This document shows, piece by piece, positions 1-58,185 of a stretch of DNA of 58,804 nt; position 1 is the stretch's first letter; each line of letters starts with the position of its first letter. The notes under the pieces are model-generated. The model was not told the origin of the DNA. It saw only the letters and a program-made list of their open reading frames with translations, and made no database searches. The position numbers and the translations under genes are program-made. The stretch is from Eubacteriaceae bacterium UBA1433. Lineage in GTDB: Bacteria; Bacillota; Clostridia; Eubacteriales; UBA1433. The stretch is from the NCBI GenBank assembly GCA_002329295.1, contig DCTT01000026.1:348054-406857 (forward strand). The letters run 5' to 3'.

Positions 1-2457
1 GCGGGTAATTTCTTCCGGACCCAGTTTGGTCTCTCTCGCTTCGCATTCGTATTCTTCTATGTGTATAGAGGTAAAAGCCTCTTCTTTCACGAGTTTTTCG
101 CTGATAAGCACAGCATCTTCAAAGTTATATCCTTCCCAGGTCATAAATCCTACCAGCACATTTCTGCCCAACGCCAACTCTCCATTATCCGAAGAAGGGC
201 CGTCCGCAATAATGTCACCGGCTTTCACATAATCGCCCTTATCAACGATGGGACGTTGATCACAGCAGGTGCCCTGGTTGGTTCTTTTGTATTTCAAGAG
301 CGGATAGCGTCTTCCGGAAATGATAATTTCATCGGACGTTACTTTTTCTACAACGCCGTCTTCTTCCGCCAACACGCACACGCCTGAGTCCTTCGCACTT
401 TTATGCTCCATACCCGTACCGATAATCGGCGCTTGCGGATTTAACAGCGGCACTGCCTGACGCTGCATGTTGGAACCCATCAATGCACGGTTGGCATCAT
501 CGTTTTCCAAAAACGGAATCAGCGCCGTGGCAACGGAAACAATTTGCTTCGGCGAAATATCCATATAATCAATTTCTTCAGGCTCCACCACAGTAAAATC
601 TCTTTCTTTGCCTGTCCTGCCCATAACTTTACTGTTGACGAAATATCCCTTTTCATCGAGTGGCTCATTGGCCTGTGCAATGGTATAGAGTCCCTCCTCA
701 TCAGCGGTTAGGTAGACATTTTCATCTGTCACATGCCCCTGCACCACTTTGCGATAAGGCGTCTCAATAAACCCGTATTCGTTGACCCTTGCATAGGTGC
801 AAAGAGAGTTGATCAGCCCGATATTGGGTCCTTCAGGGGTTTCGATTGGACACATTCTGCCATAGTGCGAATAGTGCACGTCACGCACTTCGAACCCCGC
901 CCTGTCTCGGCTCAGCCCGCCGGGTCCCAAGGCGGAAAGTCTTCTGCGATTGGTGAGCTCTGCAAGCGGGTTGGTTTGATCCATGAATTGCGAAAGTTGC
1001 GAACTGCCGAAAAACTCTTTAATCGCAGCATGTACCGGACGAATATTGATCAAATCCTGAGGAGCAAGCTGTTCCTTTTCCGGCGTCATCATACGCTCTT
1101 TTACATTTTTTTCCATCCGTGTCAACCCGATACGAAACTGGTTTTGTAAAAGCTCCCCAACGGAACGCAACCTTCTGTTGCCTAAATGGTCAATATCATC
1201 TATATCTCCGATACCGTATTCGATACCGATATTGTAGTTGATTGCGCAAAAAATATCTTCGATCGTAATATGTTTGGGCACTAACAGGCGCATGTGATCT
1301 TTGATATCCTGCTTCATTTCTTCCGGCGTTTTGCCCGAGGATAAAATATCGCAAAGCACATCATAGCGCACGGTTTTTTCCATATCGATATCGCTGATAT
1401 CAAAGGGCAAGTCTTGTGCCGTAATATCGACGATGTTGTTACCAACCACCGAATAGGGTCGACCGCTCGGTGTAATAATATCCACTCTGTTGATGCCGCT
1501 GTTTTGAATCTTGCGCGCCACCTTCAGAGATAAGATTTCTCCTTTTGCGGCAAAAACTTCGCCTGTAGTTGTACAAACAATATTGTCTGCTGCCTCCATA
1601 CCGGCAATTCTTGCAGCAAGTGCCAACTTTTTATTTAATTTATATCTTCCCACAATGGCAAGATCATATCTTCTGTTATCAAAAAACATGGCGTCAGTCA
1701 GGGAACGGGCATTTTCCACCGTGGGAGGTTCACCGGGACGAAGGCGTCTGTAGATTTCAAGCAGCCCTTCGTCTACACTGGTGGTATTGTCTTTTTCCAA
1801 CGTTGCCGTAATTTTTTTATGTTCACCGAAAAACCGAATGATTTCTTCGTTTGTACCCAGCCCGAACATACGTATCAGCATCGTGATAGGCAGTTTTCGG
1901 GTTCTGTCTACCCGCACATACATGACATCATTGGCATCTGTTTCAAATTCCAACCATGCACCACGGCTGGGAATGAGCTGTGCGGAATACAATTCTTTCC
2001 CGGATTTATCAATTTCCGAAAAAAAGTAAGCCCCCGGCGAACGAACCAACTGACTGACAATAACACGTTCCGCGCCATTAATAATAAAGGTGCCTTTTTC
2101 CGTCATAACAGGAAAATCGCCTAAATAGACATCTTGTTCAATCTTCACGCCTGTTTCTTTAAAAGTCAGACGAACTTTTGCACGCAAAGAACGAGCGTAG
2201 TTTGCATCACGCTCCTTACACTCTTCTATATCATATTTTGGTTCTCCATAAAGATTATAGTCCAAGAATTCTAAGATCAACTCGCCTGAGTAGTCCGTTA
2301 TCGGCGAAATATCATCAAAAACTTCCCGAAGCCCTTTTTCTAAAAACCATGCGTATGATTTTTTTTGAATTTCGATCAAATTGGGCATTTCCAAGTTTTC
2401 GCTGATTTTCGAAAAACTCATTCTTTCAACATGGCCGGTTTTCACTGCATGCACCAA
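1..2457 (-). CDS. rpoB: RNA polymerase beta subunit, 5' part (runs off left edge; missing from ORF track)
   Basis: Hand translation: [31 protein letters not shown]... [21 protein letters not shown]... [14 protein letters not shown]... [17 protein letters not shown] start at 2457 (or GTG at 2454) with an AAGGAG RBS; codon register is consistent at 1-12, 901-1020 and the start. Confidence 0.98.
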
Positions 2458-27466: not shown

Positions 27467-27482
27467 TGTTTCACGTGAAACA
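27467..27482. promoter_or_regulatory. parS centromere site 1
   Basis: Perfect palindrome TGTTTCACGTGAAACA. Confidence 0.95.
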
Positions 27483-27492
27483 TTTTGTTTCC

Positions 27493-27508
27493 TGTTTCAC
27501 GTGAAACA
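27493..27508. promoter_or_regulatory. parS centromere site 2
   Basis: Perfect palindrome TGTTTCACGTGAAACA, 10 bp from site 1. Confidence 0.95.
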
Positions 27509-27549: not shown

Positions 27550-27578
27550 AGACACATCGCAAAATAGCGGAGGAAATG

Positions 27579-28355
27579 ATGGCAAAGATTTATTGCGTTT
27601 TTAACCAAAAAGGCGGCGTCGGAAAAACCGCCACTACTACCAATCTGGGAGCGGGCATTGCAAAATTAGGCAAAAAAGTACTCGTTGTAGATGCCGATTC
27701 ACAAGGCAATCTTACTACAGGACTCAATATAAAGGCTGACAGAGGCGTCCACACGCTCTACGATGTGTTGTGCGGCCAGTTGGACGTTCAAAGAGCGGTG
27801 TTTCCCACCGCTTATACCAATTTAATGCTGATTCCCGCCAACGCTCGGTTGGCAGGGGCCGAGATAGAGTTGGTCGGTGTCCCTCAGCGTGAACTGGTAT
27901 TGAAAAAAAACCTGTCTTCTCTGCGCGATTCTTTTGATTATATTTTTATCGATTGCCCGCCTTCTTTGGGGTTGATTTCCATCAACTCTTTGGCTGCTTC
28001 TGACGGCATTATCGTACCTATTCAATGCGAGTATTACGCCTTGGAAGGTGTAAGCAACTTAATTAACACCATCAATCTTGTAAAGCGTGGGTTAAACCCT
28101 TCTTTGGATATTGTCGGGATTGTTTTAACCATGTATGACAGTCGCACAAACCTGTCATTACAAGTTGCCGCCGAAGTAAAGCGCTATTTTCGTGAAAAAG
28201 TGTTCAATACCATCATTCCCCGCAATGTAAAAATTGCCGAATCTCCCAGCTTTGGCAAACCGGTCATTTACTACGATGAATCTTCTTCCGGCGCCAAGGC
28301 CTACATGTCTTTGGCACAAGAATTGTTGGAAGGGGAACATGCTTATGAAACCTAA
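27579..28355 (+). CDS. parA: ParA/Soj ATPase
   Basis: NQKGGVGKTATT deviant Walker A, DADSQGN, DCPPSLG, QCEYYALEG, IPRNVKIAESPS. Confidence 0.97.
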   Translation: MAKIYCVFNQKGGVGKTATTTNLGAGIAKLGKKVLVVDADSQGNLTTGLNIKADRGVHTLYDVLCGQLDVQRAVFPTAYTNLMLIPANARLAGAEIELVGVPQRELVLKKNLSSLRDSFDYIFIDCPPSLGLISINSLAASDGIIVPIQCEYYALEGVSNLINTINLVKRGLNPSLDIVGIVLTMYDSRTNLSLQVAAEVKRYFREKVFNTIIPRNVKIAESPSFGKPVIYYDESSSGAKAYMSLAQELLEGEHAYET

Positions 28356-29208
28356 TTCTGTTTTAGGCAAAGGCTTGGATGCGCTGATTCCTTATTATGC
28401 CCACGAAACCGAAATGGATGAGGTCAGCGCCGTCCAAGAGTTGCCCATAGAAAAAATAAAACCCAATCCGAACCAACCCCGAAAAATATTTACAGAAGAC
28501 ACTTTGGCGGAATTAAGCCAATCAATTCAAGCTCACGGTATTCTTCAGCCTTTGATTGTCGTGGATCGCGACGACGAAACCTATATGATTGTTGCAGGAG
28601 AGCGTCGTTGGCGTGCCGCTTCCATGGCAAACCTCAAAACCGTACCTGTGATTGTTCGTTCTTACAGCGACGAAGAAGTGCTGGCTATTTCTTTGGTGGA
28701 AAATTTGCAACGCGAAAATTTACATGATTTAGAAAAAGCCTCTACGTACCAAATGTTAATTGATCAATTTCAACTCACCCACGAATCCCTGGCTGCAACA
28801 CTGGGCATCAGCCGGGCAGCAGTAACCAACACGCTGCGCCTTTTAAGTCTATCACAGGAAGAACAAGACGCATTGCTCAAAGAACAAATCACCGCCGGTC
28901 ACGCCCGCGCATTGCTTTCATTGCCTTTGGGCCCATTGCGTACCAAAGCGCTCAACACTATGATGAAAAAACGCCTTTCTGTGCGAGATGCAGAAACTTT
29001 GGTGCGCAATTTAAGCAAACCCGCTGCCGTTGCTCCTTTAACCAAAGAAAGCAACCATGCGGCGCTGGAGACAGAGTTGTCCGCCCTTCTGGGTCGCAAG
29101 GTGCTCATTCACCCCCGTGGCAAACGCGGCAACATTCTTTTAGAATATTATGACGCAAACGATAGAGAACACTTGATTGACGCATTAAAAAAACTGGCTG
29201 AAGGCTAA
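28345..29208 (+). CDS. parB: ParB/Spo0J CTP-dependent clamp
   Basis: LGKGLDAL, PNQPRK, IVAGERRWRA, ENLQRE; HTH specificity residues R/T/S/G (parS type). Start ATG 28345 overlaps the parA end. Confidence 0.97.
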   Translation: MKPNSVLGKGLDALIPYYAHETEMDEVSAVQELPIEKIKPNPNQPRKIFTEDTLAELSQSIQAHGILQPLIVVDRDDETYMIVAGERRWRAASMANLKTVPVIVRSYSDEEVLAISLVENLQRENLHDLEKASTYQMLIDQFQLTHESLAATLGISRAAVTNTLRLLSLSQEEQDALLKEQITAGHARALLSLPLGPLRTKALNTMMKKRLSVRDAETLVRNLSKPAAVAPLTKESNHAALETELSALLGRKVLIHPRGKRGNILLEYYDANDREHLIDALKKLAEG

Positions 29209-29232
29209 CTTCTTCATCAAAGGAGATCTTTT

Positions 29233-30330
29233 ATGACGAAAAAAAACAAAACTGCTTCCATGTTATCACTCGCTTTAATCGGAAATATTTTTTATTATAT
29301 ATTGTGCGCCATATTGTTCCAGCTTTCGCCTGCATCTAAGGCGGTCTACATCTTGTTTTTTATATGTTCCATTCTATTATGGTTTGGCATTGGCGCATAT
29401 TATGGAACATATGCTCGAAAAACCAATATTGGCAAACAATTCATTTTTGCACTGGTGACCATGGTTCCGATTCTTTTATTTTTCATAACTTATGTTGTGC
29501 TCACCCGTTTATCGAGCTCTGTAACAGGCAATCCCTGGCTTTTATTTTATACTTTCGGTGCACCGCTCTTGTTTTGGTTGAAACCTGCAACATTTTTGCT
29601 GCATTCTTTTAATATTTCTTTCCCGCTTTTTGCTGCAGGCTACATTCTTTTGTTATTGTTGACCACTTTTGCCGGCACGGCTCTTTTTGCCTTGAAGCAA
29701 CACAAAGAAACGTTTTTGCCTATTGAATCGGAAGAAATACCGGAAAAAGATACCAGTGTCCCCGCTGACGATTCCCTGCAAAATATCCCGGAAGTTGCAG
29801 AGCCTTTCGAAAACGAAGTACCGCAAAAAACCGCGATGCTAAGCCAAGAAGATACGAAAGCTGCAGAAGAAGAGCGTCAGGATATTTTGCGTTTTATCAA
29901 AGATACAAACAATGCAGAAGATATGACGGGCGCTGAAAACGTCATTGAGCAGCAATATGAAGAAAGCCAATACCGCATTGACGGGCAAGGAGACACATAC
30001 AAAACCATGCCTATGCCCACCATTGACGAACTGTATGCCGAAGTCCTCAGTCAAAAAGATTTGGAACCCGAAGACGAAACCGCCCTCTACATGCAGGAAA
30101 TCATCACCGATATGCATTTTGTGGCAGAATACGAATTAACGGATGAATCTGTCACAGAACAGGAAACGGCAGAAAGCATTGTCGATGACACGGCTTCCTC
30201 ATCACAGGCAACGACCCTCGTTGAAGAAGAATCCACCGACCGAACCAACACAAATGGTGCAGACAACGCAAAAGCCCATTCTGAAATCTCTTTGCCTGAA
30301 CAAAAAGAAAACGACGCTGACAACTCCTGA
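29233..30330 (+). CDS. Hypothetical membrane protein: 4-5 TM N-terminus and long acidic low-complexity C-terminus
   Basis: AAGGAG RBS; 365-aa ORF; hydrophobic first ~150 aa, D/E-rich remainder; no family recognised. Confidence 0.8.
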   Translation: MTKKNKTASMLSLALIGNIFYYILCAILFQLSPASKAVYILFFICSILLWFGIGAYYGTYARKTNIGKQFIFALVTMVPILLFFITYVVLTRLSSSVTGNPWLLFYTFGAPLLFWLKPATFLLHSFNISFPLFAAGYILLLLLTTFAGTALFALKQHKETFLPIESEEIPEKDTSVPADDSLQNIPEVAEPFENEVPQKTAMLSQEDTKAAEEERQDILRFIKDTNNAEDMTGAENVIEQQYEESQYRIDGQGDTYKTMPMPTIDELYAEVLSQKDLEPEDETALYMQEIITDMHFVAEYELTDESVTEQETAESIVDDTASSSQATTLVEEESTDRTNTNGADNAKAHSEISLPEQKENDADNS

Positions 30331-30392: not shown

Positions 30393-31019
30393 ATGAACGC
30401 AATTGATATCGCTATTTTGGTAGTAGTTCTTTTGTTTGGACTGATGGGATTTCGTCACGGTCTTGTAAAAAGCGTCTTGTCTTTTGCAGGCGCCATCATT
30501 GCCTTTATCGTTGCAAAAATATTTTATGTTTCTTTTGCTTTGACCTTAACAACAAAGACCAATTGGGACACGAAAATTTCTGCTTGGATCTATGAACGAC
30601 TGCTGAACACTTTTCCGTCAGGCAATGTCACACTCAGTGAAACATCCAGCTCTTTTCAGTGGTTTTTTTCCAAACTTTTCAACGAAAGTGCTTCACACAG
30701 CACGATACAAACTCTTTCAAACAGCGTTTCTCATTTTGTAATGAACGTTCTCGCCTTTGTCATCATTTTTTTAGCTATGCTTCTTATCATTGCTCTACTG
30801 GGCTTTGTGCTTGACCGCGTGATGAAATTGCCCGGCCTGAGCTTTTTGAACAAGTTAGGCGGTTTTGGCATCGGCCTTGCAAAAGGTGTGTTGATTTGTG
30901 CCGTTTTTATCAGTTTGATTACCTTTTTCTCTCTCTTTTCCAAAAATGCCGCCTTCTCTGAGATGTTTGCCAATTCTGTTTTTGCAAAATATCTCTATAT
31001 CGGCCGTTGGTTAATGTAG
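30393..31019 (+). CDS. CvpA (colicin V production) family membrane protein
   Basis: IDIAIL..G..GF.HGLVKSVLSF and LNKLGGFGIGLAKG signature; GAGGAGGTG RBS. Confidence 0.85.
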   Translation: MNAIDIAILVVVLLFGLMGFRHGLVKSVLSFAGAIIAFIVAKIFYVSFALTLTTKTNWDTKISAWIYERLLNTFPSGNVTLSETSSSFQWFFSKLFNESASHSTIQTLSNSVSHFVMNVLAFVIIFLAMLLIIALLGFVLDRVMKLPGLSFLNKLGGFGIGLAKGVLICAVFISLITFFSLFSKNAAFSEMFANSVFAKYLYIGRWLM

Positions 31020-31028
31020 GAGTGCGCC

Positions 31029-31265
31029 ATGGCCATCGAAACTTTTGGACTGGGCGATATTGTACAAACAAAAAAACCGCACCCTTGCGGGTGCGATCAA
31101 TGGAAAATTTTGCGCATTGGCGTTGATGTAAAACTACAATGCCTACGCTGTGAACGGGTGGTTGTGTTGGAGCGAGTCATCTTTAAGAAAAAAGCAAAAA
31201 AAATCGTACAGCGTGCCACTGTATCAGAAGAAGATTCACTTTCTGCTTACTGGTATGATACATAG
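31029..31265 (+). CDS. DUF951 family protein
   Basis: GDIVQTKKPHPCG..W.ILRIGVDVKLQC..C.R motif; usual neighbour of rpsF. Confidence 0.9.
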   Translation: MAIETFGLGDIVQTKKPHPCGCDQWKILRIGVDVKLQCLRCERVVVLERVIFKKKAKKIVQRATVSEEDSLSAYWYDT

Positions 31266-31278
31266 AAATGAAAACACC

Positions 31279-32253
31279 ATGAAAGAACTGCCACAAACAT
31301 TTAATTGCAAACACTTTAAACAGGAAATCAATCGCATTGCACTTATTCTCATTTGTTATGAAGCTGTTTTTTTGATATTTGCCATTGTTTTCACAATTTT
31401 GTTGGGAATATGGCAGGGACTATCGATTATACCAGAGGCAAGCTCCCTGGATTCTTTTAATGCAGACAACCTCGCTGCAAACGGATGGCCTTATCTGCTC
31501 AGCACCCTTATCGCTACAGGAACGGCCATTGCATTCCGCAAACAACATGTCCTTCGCAAAGATCTTTCCTGTCAACAAAAACCGATGCGCTTCTATGCTT
31601 TTTCGTTTTTTCTGGCTTTTATGATGGCGATACAATTATTCAATCAATTTTTTTCTGTTTCTATCGAATCTTTTTTAAATGTTTTCGGCTACAGCATGGC
31701 GGAAAGTATGGAAGCCTTAACAGAAATAGATGACACGGTTTCCATGTTTTTTTATGTGGTTTTCATTGGACCTGTAGCCGAAGAAATTATGTTTCGCGGC
31801 GTGGTGCTGCACTCACTGAAAAAATACGGCAAAATTTTTGCCGTCGTCATCTCCTCCTTGGCTTTTGGACTTATGCACGGCAATTTATATCAGCTTTTAT
31901 TTGCTTTTGGCATAGGCTTAATGCTGGCCTATATAACTCTTGAATATTCATTCAAGTGGGCTGTTGTACTGCATATTTTGAACAACTTGATTTTTGGCGA
32001 ATTTATACTTTTTCTTACCAAGCGCTTTTCTGAAACCGTCATCGCCCGCTTTCAGTTTTTTTTCTATACAATCTTTTTTATTTTCGTCCTCATTGTTCTT
32101 TTTCAGAAGTTTCCCGCTATTCGAGCCTACTTTCGACAACATCGCACTGCAAAAGGACAATATGCACTCACTTTCAAATCGATTCTTCCACTCGTTTATT
32201 TTGCTGTCAATCTGCTTTTGATTCGACTTAGCATTACAAAACTTGTTCTGTAA
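31279..32253 (+). CDS. CPBP (Abi/CAAX-like) intramembrane glutamic endopeptidase
   Basis: GPVAEEIMFRG, FGLMHGN, HILNN motifs; multi-TM. Confidence 0.9.
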   Translation: MKELPQTFNCKHFKQEINRIALILICYEAVFLIFAIVFTILLGIWQGLSIIPEASSLDSFNADNLAANGWPYLLSTLIATGTAIAFRKQHVLRKDLSCQQKPMRFYAFSFFLAFMMAIQLFNQFFSVSIESFLNVFGYSMAESMEALTEIDDTVSMFFYVVFIGPVAEEIMFRGVVLHSLKKYGKIFAVVISSLAFGLMHGNLYQLLFAFGIGLMLAYITLEYSFKWAVVLHILNNLIFGEFILFLTKRFSETVIARFQFFFYTIFFIFVLIVLFQKFPAIRAYFRQHRTAKGQYALTFKSILPLVYFAVNLLLIRLSITKLVL

Positions 32254-32386: not shown

Positions 32387-32415
32387 TTGATTTTTTCTTT
32401 CTGATTCAGTATAAT
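32387..32415 (+). promoter_or_regulatory. sigma-A promoter of rpsF-ssb-rpsR
   Basis: TTGATT-N17-TATAAT. Confidence 0.8.
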
Positions 32416-33476: not shown

Positions 33477-33486
33477 ATTATGAAAG

Positions 33487-55507: not shown

Positions 55508-57406
55508 ATGGGAACGAGAAAAACAGAGCCGTACGACATTGTGATCATCGGTGCAGGGCATGCAGGGTGTGAGGCGGCGCTTGCCGCAGCGCGAAAGGGA
55601 AAAAATACGCTGTTGTTGACGATGAATTTAGATTCGGTAGCGTTACTACCCTGCAATCCTTCCATTGGCGGAACGGGCAAAGGGCATTTGGTGCGAGAAA
55701 TTGACGCCTTGGGCGGAGAAATGGGCAAAAATATTGATAAAGCCTTTATTCAAAGCAGGATGCTCAACACCGCCAAAGGACATGCCGTGCGTTCGCTTCG
55801 TGCACAGGCGGATAAAAAAAGATATCAGAGCGAAATGAAACAGGTGTTGGAAAATCAGCAAAATCTCACACTGATGCAGCAAGAGGCGGAAAAGTTATTG
55901 GTTGAAGAGGGGATTGTGTGCGGTGTAATAACAAAAACCGGCAGAATTTTCTCGGCAGCAGCGGTGATTGTGGCTTCGGGCACCTATTTAAACGGAAAAA
56001 TCATTATCGGTGAAACGTCTTACACCAGCGGGCCAAACGGCATGAGCGCTTCCGAGAAGTTATCAGAAAACCTGCTGTCTCACGGCTTGCGTCTGATGCG
56101 TCTGAAAACAGGCACGCCCGCTCGCATCAATAAACGCAGCGTGGATTTTTCAAAAATGCAACGCCAGGACGGTGATGAAGTCATCGAACCGTTTTCGTTT
56201 GAAAACGAATTTGATTCCGCTCCGCAAGTGCCTTGTTATTTAACATATACCAACGAAGAGACGAAACGCATTATTCTTGAAAATTTGCACCGTGCGCCAA
56301 TGTACAGCGGTATGATTGAAGGGGTAGGCGTGCGTTATTGCCCCAGCATTGAAGATAAAATCGTTCGCTTTGCGGATAAAGAGAAACACCAGTTGTTTAT
56401 TGAGCCCGAGGGGCTTGACACCAACGAACTTTATGTGCAGGGAATGTCGTCATCGTTGCCTGAAGATGTGCAAGAGGCTATGATGCACACGGTGCCGGGA
56501 TTGGAAAAGGCCGAGATTATGCGCAGCGCCTATGCCATTGAATATGATGCCATTGAAGCGCATCAACTGACCTTGTCTTTGGAAACAAAACAAATCAAAG
56601 GACTGTTTATGGCGGGGCAGATTAACGGCAGCTCCGGCTATGAAGAAGCGGCGGCTCAAGGGCTGATTGCAGGCATCAATGCAGTGAATTTTATGGATGG
56701 GAAAGCGCCGTTAATTTTGGATCGCAGTCAGGCGTATATCGGGGTGCTCATTGATGATTTGGTTACAAAAGGAACGGCGGAGCCTTATCGCATGATGACT
56801 TCGCGAGTGGAATATCGTTTGCTGTTGCGTCAGGACAACGCTGATTTGCGTTTGACGGAAATAGGATATGAACAAGGACTGATCAGTGAAGAAAGATATC
56901 AAAAGTTTTTGCAGAAAAAACAAGAGATTCAACAAGAATTGCAGCGACTGAAAAGCACAAAAATCAGCAAAGAGACGGCAAATGCGTTTTTGCAAACCGT
57001 TTTTTCTTCGCCGGTTTCAGAAAGTATTTCATTATATGAATTGCTAAAAAGGCCGGAGATAACGTATAATGATAGTAGCGTGATTGATCCGAGCAGAAAG
57101 CCTTTGGAAAAAAAGATCACGCAGCAGGTGGAAATATCCATTCAATATGAAGGATACATCAGAAAACAGCAGGAACAAGTAGCGCGGTTTTTAAAGATGG
57201 AAGAAAAAAAGATTGATGAAGATATTGACTATCAGCAAATGAAAAATCTGAGATTGGAAGCCAGAGAAAAATTAAACAAAATTCGTCCGACGTCGTTGGG
57301 ACAAGCCTCACGCATTACAGGGGTATCCCCGGCGGATATATCGGCACTGATGATTTATATGGAAAAAATGAAGCAGCAAAAGTTGCAGGGAGAAAAAAAC
57401 AAATGA
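55508..57406 (+). CDS. mnmG: tRNA U34 modification enzyme MnmG (GidA)
   Basis: [43 protein letters not shown]. Confidence 0.99.
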
Positions 57407-58185
57407 ATGGAAAAATAAACAAAACCGAAATGATTCCCGTGGAGTGGATCATTCCCAACAAAAATCAACCTCGAAAACATTTTGACGAAACCAGCCTAAA
57501 CGAGTTGGCTGAATCCATCGCCAAAGTGGGAATCATCCAGCCGCTTACAGTGAAACATGCAGGAAACGGGCGCTTTGACTTAATTGCCGGCGAGCGGCGG
57601 TTGCGGGCGGCACAGCTGGTCGGATTGCGCCGTGTGCCTTGTATCATCTTTGAGGCGAGCGAAGAAGATGCAGCCTTTTTAAGCATGATTGAAAACGTGC
57701 AGCGAGAAGATTTGAATTTTGTTGAAGAAGCGACAGGGTACAAACAGCTGCTTTCAACGTACCGACTCACCCAGGAGCAATTATCGGAAATCATCGGCAA
57801 AAAACAATCGACCATTGCCAACAAATTACGCATTTTAAATTTAAACGAAGACGTGCTGGCTTTGTTGCAGAAAAACAATCTTACAGAGCGGCATGCGCGG
57901 GCATTGTTGAAGCTGCCTGTAAATGAGCGCATGTCTGCAGCAAGAAGAATTGTTCGCCGCGGGCTCAATGTGCGCCAGACCGAAGAAATGATTGATGCGA
58001 TAAACGGTAAAGCCGCCATTAATCCCGCAAAGCGCCGTGTTACCAATATTTTTGATAAACGCATCTATGTCAATACCATTAAAAAAGCCTTTTCGGACAT
58101 CAAGAAAACAGGGGTTCGTGCGCTTTATGCCGAACAGGAAGATGGCGAAAACATCACGATTACCATTGTCATACCGAAAAAATAA
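57403..58185 (+). CDS. noc: Noc-like ParB-family protein
   Basis: [47 protein letters not shown] (Noc-type Q/K/R residues); located after mnmG. Confidence 0.9.

Follow-up and report, generated by a model that had tools for sequence, protein, structure and literature searches.

An order-wide family of polytopic membrane proteins encoded next to parB in one order of Clostridia: candidate membrane partners of ParABS

ParA and ParB are captured by a number of polar or membrane organisers, namely PopZ, HubP, TipN, DivIVA/RacA and MinJ-ComN, which as a rule are encoded outside the parAB operon. To our knowledge, the positioning of ParABS relative to the envelope is understood in a few model organisms (PopZ, HubP, DivIVA/RacA) and not in Clostridia. 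A further link between DNA and membrane is provided by Noc (TIGR04285), a ParB-family CTP clamp which reaches the membrane via an N-terminal amphipathic helix. The protein described here, denoted X, is encoded directly behind a clostridial parB. It shares with organisers of the PopZ/HubP type a membrane- or pole-fixed protein with an acidic, disordered and (in X, by prediction) cytoplasmic region near the partition complex, and with Noc the idea of an origin-proximal DNA-membrane link in the ParB world. Contrary to all the organisers named above, X is predicted to be polytopic and has no Pfam homology to them; neither the PopZ family model nor the LysM and repeat architecture of HubP was found in X by Pfam at E≤1. 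The acidic, disordered region itself is present in X but is not conserved in its family. Unlike Noc, X is not a ParB-family protein, lacks a DNA-binding domain and occurs also where the Noc paralogue is absent. In functional terms X would be at most a variant of a known theme, that of membrane or polar anchors for ParABS.

The window, i.e. the whole stretch of DNA analysed, comprises 58,804 nucleotides of the genome of Eubacteriaceae bacterium UBA1433; the positions of X and its surroundings are collected in Table 1. The locus is assigned as a chromosomal ParABS partition locus because of the paired perfect parS sites 5′ of parA. Two exact parS matches are found where 0.06 would be expected by chance, and relatives carry the pair at the matching position. 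The start of parB is likely Met36 or Met38 of the 28234 ORF and overlaps the stop of parA. The start codon of X follows 24 nt past the parB stop (parB end at 29208). On the + strand from parA to 33485 the sole terminator-like candidate is a weak 5-bp stem within cvpA; the first strong terminator-like site of this strand, at 33485, is located 3′ of rpsR, and a promoter-like site is found at 32387 ahead of rpsF. The terminator-free gap of 24 nt between parB and X, described in a first-pass annotation of the letters, is thereby borne out, and we infer from this arrangement that X would be co-transcribed with parA and parB as the third cistron. Two of the next three genes downstream of X encode membrane proteins.

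Table 1. Features of the locus and of related loci. Positions are those of the window unless another sequence is named.
Feature	Position	Strand	Remarks
parS pair	27467-27482 and 27493-27508	.	perfect TGTTTCACGTGAAACA, twice; about 70 nt 5′ of parA
parA/soj	27576..28355	+	259 aa; AAA_31 7.7e-63; CbiA/ParA family matches (Pfam); ParA-family models (NCBIfam)
parB/spo0J	28339..29208	+	ParB_N 4.8e-35; HTH_ParB 1.1e-29; TIGR00180 2.4e-55
parB-X spacer	29209..29232	+	24 nt; AAAGGAG (AAGGAG RBS) 7 nt 5′ of X ATG; terminator-free
X, ORF	29233..30330	+	365 aa, ATG start
X, membrane domain	29233..29697	+	residues 1-155; four predicted TM helices and aromatic segment 101-125
X, predicted cytoplasmic tail	29698..30330	+	residues 156-365 with stop codon; polyacidic, pI ~4.05
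X, tail island	29941..30132	+	residues 237-300; contains YRIDGQGDTYKTMPMPTIDELYAEVL and ALYMQEIITDMHFVAEY; subclade-only
cvpA-like membrane protein	30393..31019 (ORF from 30375)	+	Colicin_V 1e-26; next gene after X
DUF951 small protein	31029..31265	+	PF06107 4.7e-24; member of conserved array
CPBP/Rce1-like intramembrane protease	31279..32253	+	PF02517 3.9e-19; last gene before rpsF-ssb-rpsR promoter-like site
Second ParB-family (Noc-like) gene	57403-58185		start 12 residues before ParB box
Polyacidic-tailed polytopic membrane paralogues	C3:10533-12555; C4:264477-266328	-; -	674 and 617 aa
778-aa protein	C13:13357-15691	+	acidic N-terminal repeat region, then single membrane-spanning segment
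X homologues, genus g3	L052:928-2022; L054:1486-2574	-; +	also L032, L034
DUF4446 genes, family f4	L018:9925-10434; L020:2217-2738; G009:C22:26495-26938	+; -;	

Residues 1-155 of X are hydrophobic and contain 10 Lys/Arg and not a single Asp/Glu. Residues 156-365 harbor 56 Asp/Glu versus 13 Lys/Arg, exactly the numbers counted by hand in the first-pass annotation. Kyte-Doolittle analysis delineates hydrophobic segments at about 10-30, 37-57, 68-90 and 128-154, with a less hydrophobic, aromatic stretch at 101-124. The AlphaFold2 model of the membrane domain (pLDDT 89.7, pTM 0.84) places helices at 10-30, 36-60, 66-96, 101-115 (plus a short one) and 130-151, in agreement with the four to five transmembrane segments noticed earlier. 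Averaged over 26 family members, the N-terminus carries 2.6 Lys plus Arg residues, loop 2 carries 3.0 and the initial 25 tail residues about 7; loops 1, 3 and 4 carry 0.7, 0.35 and 0.23, respectively. According to the positive-inside rule this distribution places the N-terminus, loop 2 and the tail in the cytoplasm. Both termini of X are therefore predicted by charge statistics to be cytoplasmic (N-in/C-in), with an intracellular tail; an extracellular tail, which the annotation had considered, is not what the 26 sequences predict.

With the N-terminus, loop 2 and the tail on the cytoplasmic side, the segment 101-125 cannot span the membrane. It is rich in aromatic residues and carries the signature of the family, G-A-P-x-x-F-W-x-K/R-P. 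The model shows here a helix of 15 residues and, after it, short and broken helices; the segment would probably form a re-entrant or interfacial element at the outer face. Invariant or nearly invariant residues of the family are N18, W50, P79, F105, F114, P118 and G148. Among them N18 is the sole invariant polar residue of the membrane domain, and conserved acidic or histidine residues are absent, which argues for a scaffold or partner rather than for an enzyme or transporter. A role as enzyme or transporter was consequently rejected, as no charged residue or histidine is conserved in this domain.

Full-length X has four homologue clusters only in a word-indexed protein search; three of them are 90-92% identical and the fourth 51%. 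It was nevertheless mislabelled as an ORFan, since the membrane domain belongs to a family found throughout the order. Residues 1-158 recur in 31 of 40 related genomes in a six-frame search, and a profile of 26 membrane domains (alignment A3) applied to 102 genomes of this order detects a single copy in 95. Among the high-quality genomes of the order X is present in 72 of 75, and among the genera in 30 of 32; the window protein itself matches the profile with 158.8 bits (E 9.3e-47). Other genomes of the class (n=289) yield one marginal match to the profile (E 9.8e-5), and 300 genomes from the rest of the phylum yield none. An exhaustive search of representatives returned 25 proteins, every one a member of the family. 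A word-indexed search with the domain profile gave 6 clusters, hydrophobic words having saturated its candidate list. X exhibits the defining features of the family according to alignments A2 and A3, namely a membrane domain of ~155 residues with N18, W50, P79 and the G-A-P-x-x-F-W-x-K/R-P signature, and a single copy directly 3′ of chromosomal parB.

The annotation had also raised the possibility that X belongs to a known, unrelated family, and no such family was matched. When X and 26 relatives were scanned against Pfam and NCBIfam, no consistent match emerged, the sole Pfam match of X at E≤1 being a chance match to a phage domain. Searching the sequences of the PDB with the profile gave chance matches only (E≥0.23), and Foldseek against the PDB with full-length and domain-only models gave a best E of 1.3-1.4 with TM≤0.32. 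A plasmid search with the membrane domain had zero matches, hence no homologue beside plasmid par systems. The family is undescribed in Pfam, NCBIfam, the PDB and the searched literature, and judged by its sequence X belongs to an unnamed family of small polytopic proteins of the cytoplasmic membrane that is confined to one order.

Throughout the order the homologues stay next to parB, as the annotation had asked. Of the 83 genomes that could be scored (X genes with a ParB HTH upstream on the same contig and strand, among the matches listed for the 102-genome sample), at least 74 have the X start 192-281 nt from the end of the ParB HTH domain, so that X is the next gene after parB. Some of the apparent exceptions, in the own genus and family and in the g9 genomes of family f3, adjoin parB by tblastn of their loci. 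Of 24 loci examined, 21 have a gap of -4 to 78 nt between parB and X; 4-nt (ATGA-type) overlaps occur in three. In the window and in families f1 (the own family), f2 and f5 both parS sites are located 5′ of parA; in family f3 one perfect parS (TGTTTCACGTGAAACA) is located 5′ of parA and another in the parB-X spacer before the ribosome-binding site of X.

The surroundings of X are conserved as well. Tblastn with the window proteins over 29 loci depicts the array parA-parB-X-cvpA-DUF951-(CPBP)-rpsF-ssb-rpsR in f1, f2 and f3, i.e. in three of the five families of the order. Since genes near the origin generally keep their order, and cvpA, DUF951 and rpsF-ssb-rpsR also persist in these three families, the adjacency of parB and X may reflect inheritance rather than function. 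X could then be a housekeeping protein of the envelope, active for instance in membrane homeostasis together with the CvpA-like and CPBP proteins, which has merely inherited its place beside parB. We regard this as the main rival explanation, serious but somewhat doubtful. Apart from the conservation of the whole array from parA to rpsR, it draws on the neighbouring membrane proteins and on the large-genome genus g3, where X overlaps the start of cvpA by 4 nt in three of four loci (L052, L054, L032, L034; in L034 the gap is estimated at 5 nt). It is also in keeping with the lack of a conserved cytoplasmic domain in the X family and with the frequent occurrence of acidic tails on other membrane proteins encoded here (see below). 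Like members of the CvpA/Colicin V production family (PF02674), X is small, polytopic, co-directional with and sometimes overlapping cvpA, yet X has no match to PF02674 while the neighbouring cvpA matches at 1e-26. Family f5, in which the array breaks, speaks against such an explanation. Here parA-parB-X is intact with gaps of 3, 6, -4 and -4 nt, cvpA is gone and the flanks are rearranged (TetR-like, pseudouridine-synthase-like or other genes 3′, different genes 5′), so that X has stayed with parB and not with cvpA. The gene cvpA follows X in three of five families; in f4, in f5 and at some loci of f3 it is missing or far away, and its linkage to X is lost in two families in which the linkage to parB stays. 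The spacing of X and cvpA is looser and less constant than that of parB and X. Family f4, on the other hand, counts against a partnership of X with ParABS, as parB is separated there from X by a hydrolase-like gene or by 0.5 kb of spacer. A further point against a merely inherited position is that unrelated membrane-anchored proteins occupy the same slot elsewhere in Clostridia.

One of these proteins is DUF4446 (PF14584), present in 52 of 121 sampled genomes of the class. In 7 of 12 loci examined parB, preceded by parA, is located directly 5′ of DUF4446, and in an eighth only a parB fragment is found, about 1.1 kb from the match. DUF4446 comprises about 170 aa, with a single TM helix at the N-terminus, then a coiled coil, and at the C-terminus a globular, conserved RYNAF..GSDLSFSIALLD domain; most of the protein faces the cytoplasm. 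X resembles it in its position directly 3′ of parB and in a predicted membrane anchor with a basic juxtamembrane stretch. It does not fit the architecture of DUF4446, however, as the membrane domain has five helices in the model and the C-terminal block is missing; X possesses no conserved soluble domain and no sequence match, the DUF4446 model (cut-off 27.4 bits) having zero matches in X or 26 family members. A DUF4446 match is also absent from the whole of the own genome. Of the families in the order of X, f4 alone has kept DUF4446, which there is found about 3-4 kb 3′ of X and away from parB. As both coexist in that family, the notion that X replaced DUF4446 was rejected.

In DUF4446-negative genomes 37 parA-parB pairs were inspected. 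About 10 of them (L069, L075, L076, L078, L085, L095, L096 and L105-L107, from other orders of Clostridia) are followed by a protein of 92-170 aa with an N-terminal TM segment and a coiled coil; seven of these proteins, scanned against Pfam, gave nothing over a family cut-off. An exported protein follows parB in two more loci. At about seven loci the next gene is presumably that of seryl-tRNA synthetase, as taken by eye from its MLDLK... N-terminus, and the remaining loci have various soluble proteins in this position. A membrane-anchored third gene is therefore common, though not universal, with at least three unrelated designs filling the slot: DUF4446, the small TM and coiled-coil proteins and the polytopic X family. 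The literature searched contained nothing relevant on DUF4446, on a membrane protein downstream of parB or on a gene downstream of spo0J. It is conceivable, though we consider it unlikely, that the third cistron of clostridial parAB is reserved for a membrane-inserted protein which couples ParB-parS to the membrane, be it by contact or by transertion. If this were true, much of the Firmicutes would possess, in the slot proteins, a membrane tether as a so far unrecognised component of ParABS.

Transertion as such would make the identity of the protein secondary. Expression of a membrane protein moves its locus toward the membrane, and a co-translationally inserted membrane protein encoded within about 2 kb of parS could pull the origin there through transcription coupled to translation and insertion. 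The filling of the slot by non-homologous membrane proteins in different lineages, the unconstrained tails of X and the arrangement in family f3 agree with this: among eight loci (L015-L017, L021-L023, L026, L031), seven have the perfect parS 30-78 nt 5′ of the start of X, and L015 has it at 252 nt. The specific conserved motifs of X (G-A-P-x-x-F-W-x-K/R-P, N18, W50, P79), on the other hand, imply a function at the level of the protein, and in roughly one third of the DUF4446-negative Clostridia sampled the slot is taken by serS or by a gene for some other soluble protein. We hold transertion alone to be very improbable.

The most conspicuous part of X is its tail. When 957 non-overlapping ORFs of ≥210 aa in the genome are ranked by their most acidic 210-aa window, it comes third; its net charge is -43, whereas the median is -9 and the 1st percentile -26. 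In the AlphaFold2 model it is mostly of low confidence or disordered (pLDDT mostly <70). Within the family the tail varies widely, from 6-28 mostly basic residues up to about 225, with net charges of +8 to -44. Short tails comprise 11-20 residues throughout f3, 6-24 in f4 and 28 in one f5 member. Most family tails open with a polybasic stretch after the last helix, and many then become acidic or mixed. Strongly acidic tails are concentrated in the own family f1, with net charges of -42, -44, -30, -25, -23 and -5; the tail of P0006, a relative with 36% identity, is net-positive. From these comparisons the acidic tail is best described as a lineage-specific, fast-evolving appendage. Tails of genus g3 end with D-K-S-F-L/F-x-E-T-S-x-I/V-R-I-I-N/D/S-E-E-D-I-E-E-Y-Y-R-N/T-K-K, and those of genus g13 in family f5 have a motif of their own, LAEEIVNNILKENLKEQ.

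The short island that had been noticed in the tail, GDTYKTMPMPTIDELYAEVL, is indeed present and forms part of a block of 64 residues (237-300). In the 51% homologue this block is 78% identical, whereas the membrane domain reaches 60% and the tail on either side of the block 22-38%, and in a collection of 5.8 billion sequences it was found in no protein beyond the same four clusters. It is modelled as helices 231-250, 264-274 and 282-303, which are amphipathic in the model at modest confidence (pLDDT of about 45-68 as means of 10-residue blocks). The island may be regarded as the likeliest candidate site for a specific partner.

The first-pass annotation had taken the protein with the acidic tail as a candidate ParABS anchor. 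In its full form this explanation states that the polyacidic tail acts as a polyanion or DNA mimic which recruits or sequesters ParA (or Noc) in the manner of PopZ or HubP and offsets the helix-less Noc. The second ParB-family gene, with only 12 residues before the ParB box, indeed leaves no room for an N-terminal amphipathic or membrane helix in the Noc paralogue. The predicted cytoplasmic location of the tail and its charge, extreme for the proteome, stand as well, and the island is under purifying selection. The acidity, however, is confined to the lineage, the tails of f3 being basic and others net neutral or positive. Furthermore, X shares the first four places among the acidic 210-aa windows of its genome with three other proteins, namely two polytopic membrane paralogues with polyacidic tails and the 778-aa protein, presumably a cell-wall enzyme as judged by eye. 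The occurrence of acidic tails on other membrane proteins points to a habit of the lineage and makes acidity weak evidence for a role specific to ParA. As to Noc, X is kept in genus g3 (28 genomes sampled), in which most genomes have one ParB-type gene among the matches listed and hence lack the Noc paralogue. The idea that X complements the helix-less Noc is consequently not supported and was rejected. A mechanism based on the polyacidic tail, which would be applicable at most to this genus, is rated as improbable. An mnmG/gidA-like gene precedes the Noc paralogue, whose start overlaps its stop codon, with rsmG absent between them.

For X as a whole we tentatively favour, at a little under even confidence, the role of a membrane-fixed partner of the ParABS origin-segregation machinery, because its coupling to parB is tight and withstands rearrangement and because membrane anchors recur in the slot. 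As a partner of ParABS, X would be made as the third cistron of the chromosomal parA-parB transcript and often be coupled translationally to parB. Its working part would be the conserved membrane domain with short cytoplasmic surfaces. Two points weigh against such a role: the many nearly tailless members offer a Par contact no conserved cytoplasmic surface other than a 9-residue N-terminus and an 11-residue loop, and homologues are absent from plasmid par systems. On this membrane anchor a disordered cytoplasmic tail may be hung, and X could thus place a cytoplasmic appendage beside the ParB-parS complex, which assembles on the very DNA that encodes X. Within this genus such an appendage would have turned polyacidic and gained the conserved amphipathic helical island of 64 residues. 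Of the earlier proposal of a third par component tethering the origin, the linkage to parB, the membrane anchor and the predicted orientation of the tail toward the nucleoid are thus retained, and the specific mechanism does not generalise.

X is a genetically testable candidate for ParABS, as the order should hold Eubacterium limosum and Acetobacterium woodii according to the names of NCBI records. Should the link to Par be real, a membrane component would be added to the textbook two-protein system; should it be absent, X would still represent a new, confidently modelled family of membrane proteins outside Pfam and NCBIfam.

Further along the window, between 46000 and 48000, the GC skew switches its sign and the GC content falls to 0.346, which suggests an oriC at about 47 kb. 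With the origin at this position, the parA-parB-X-...-dnaB block on the + strand would face it and be transcribed head-on to replication.
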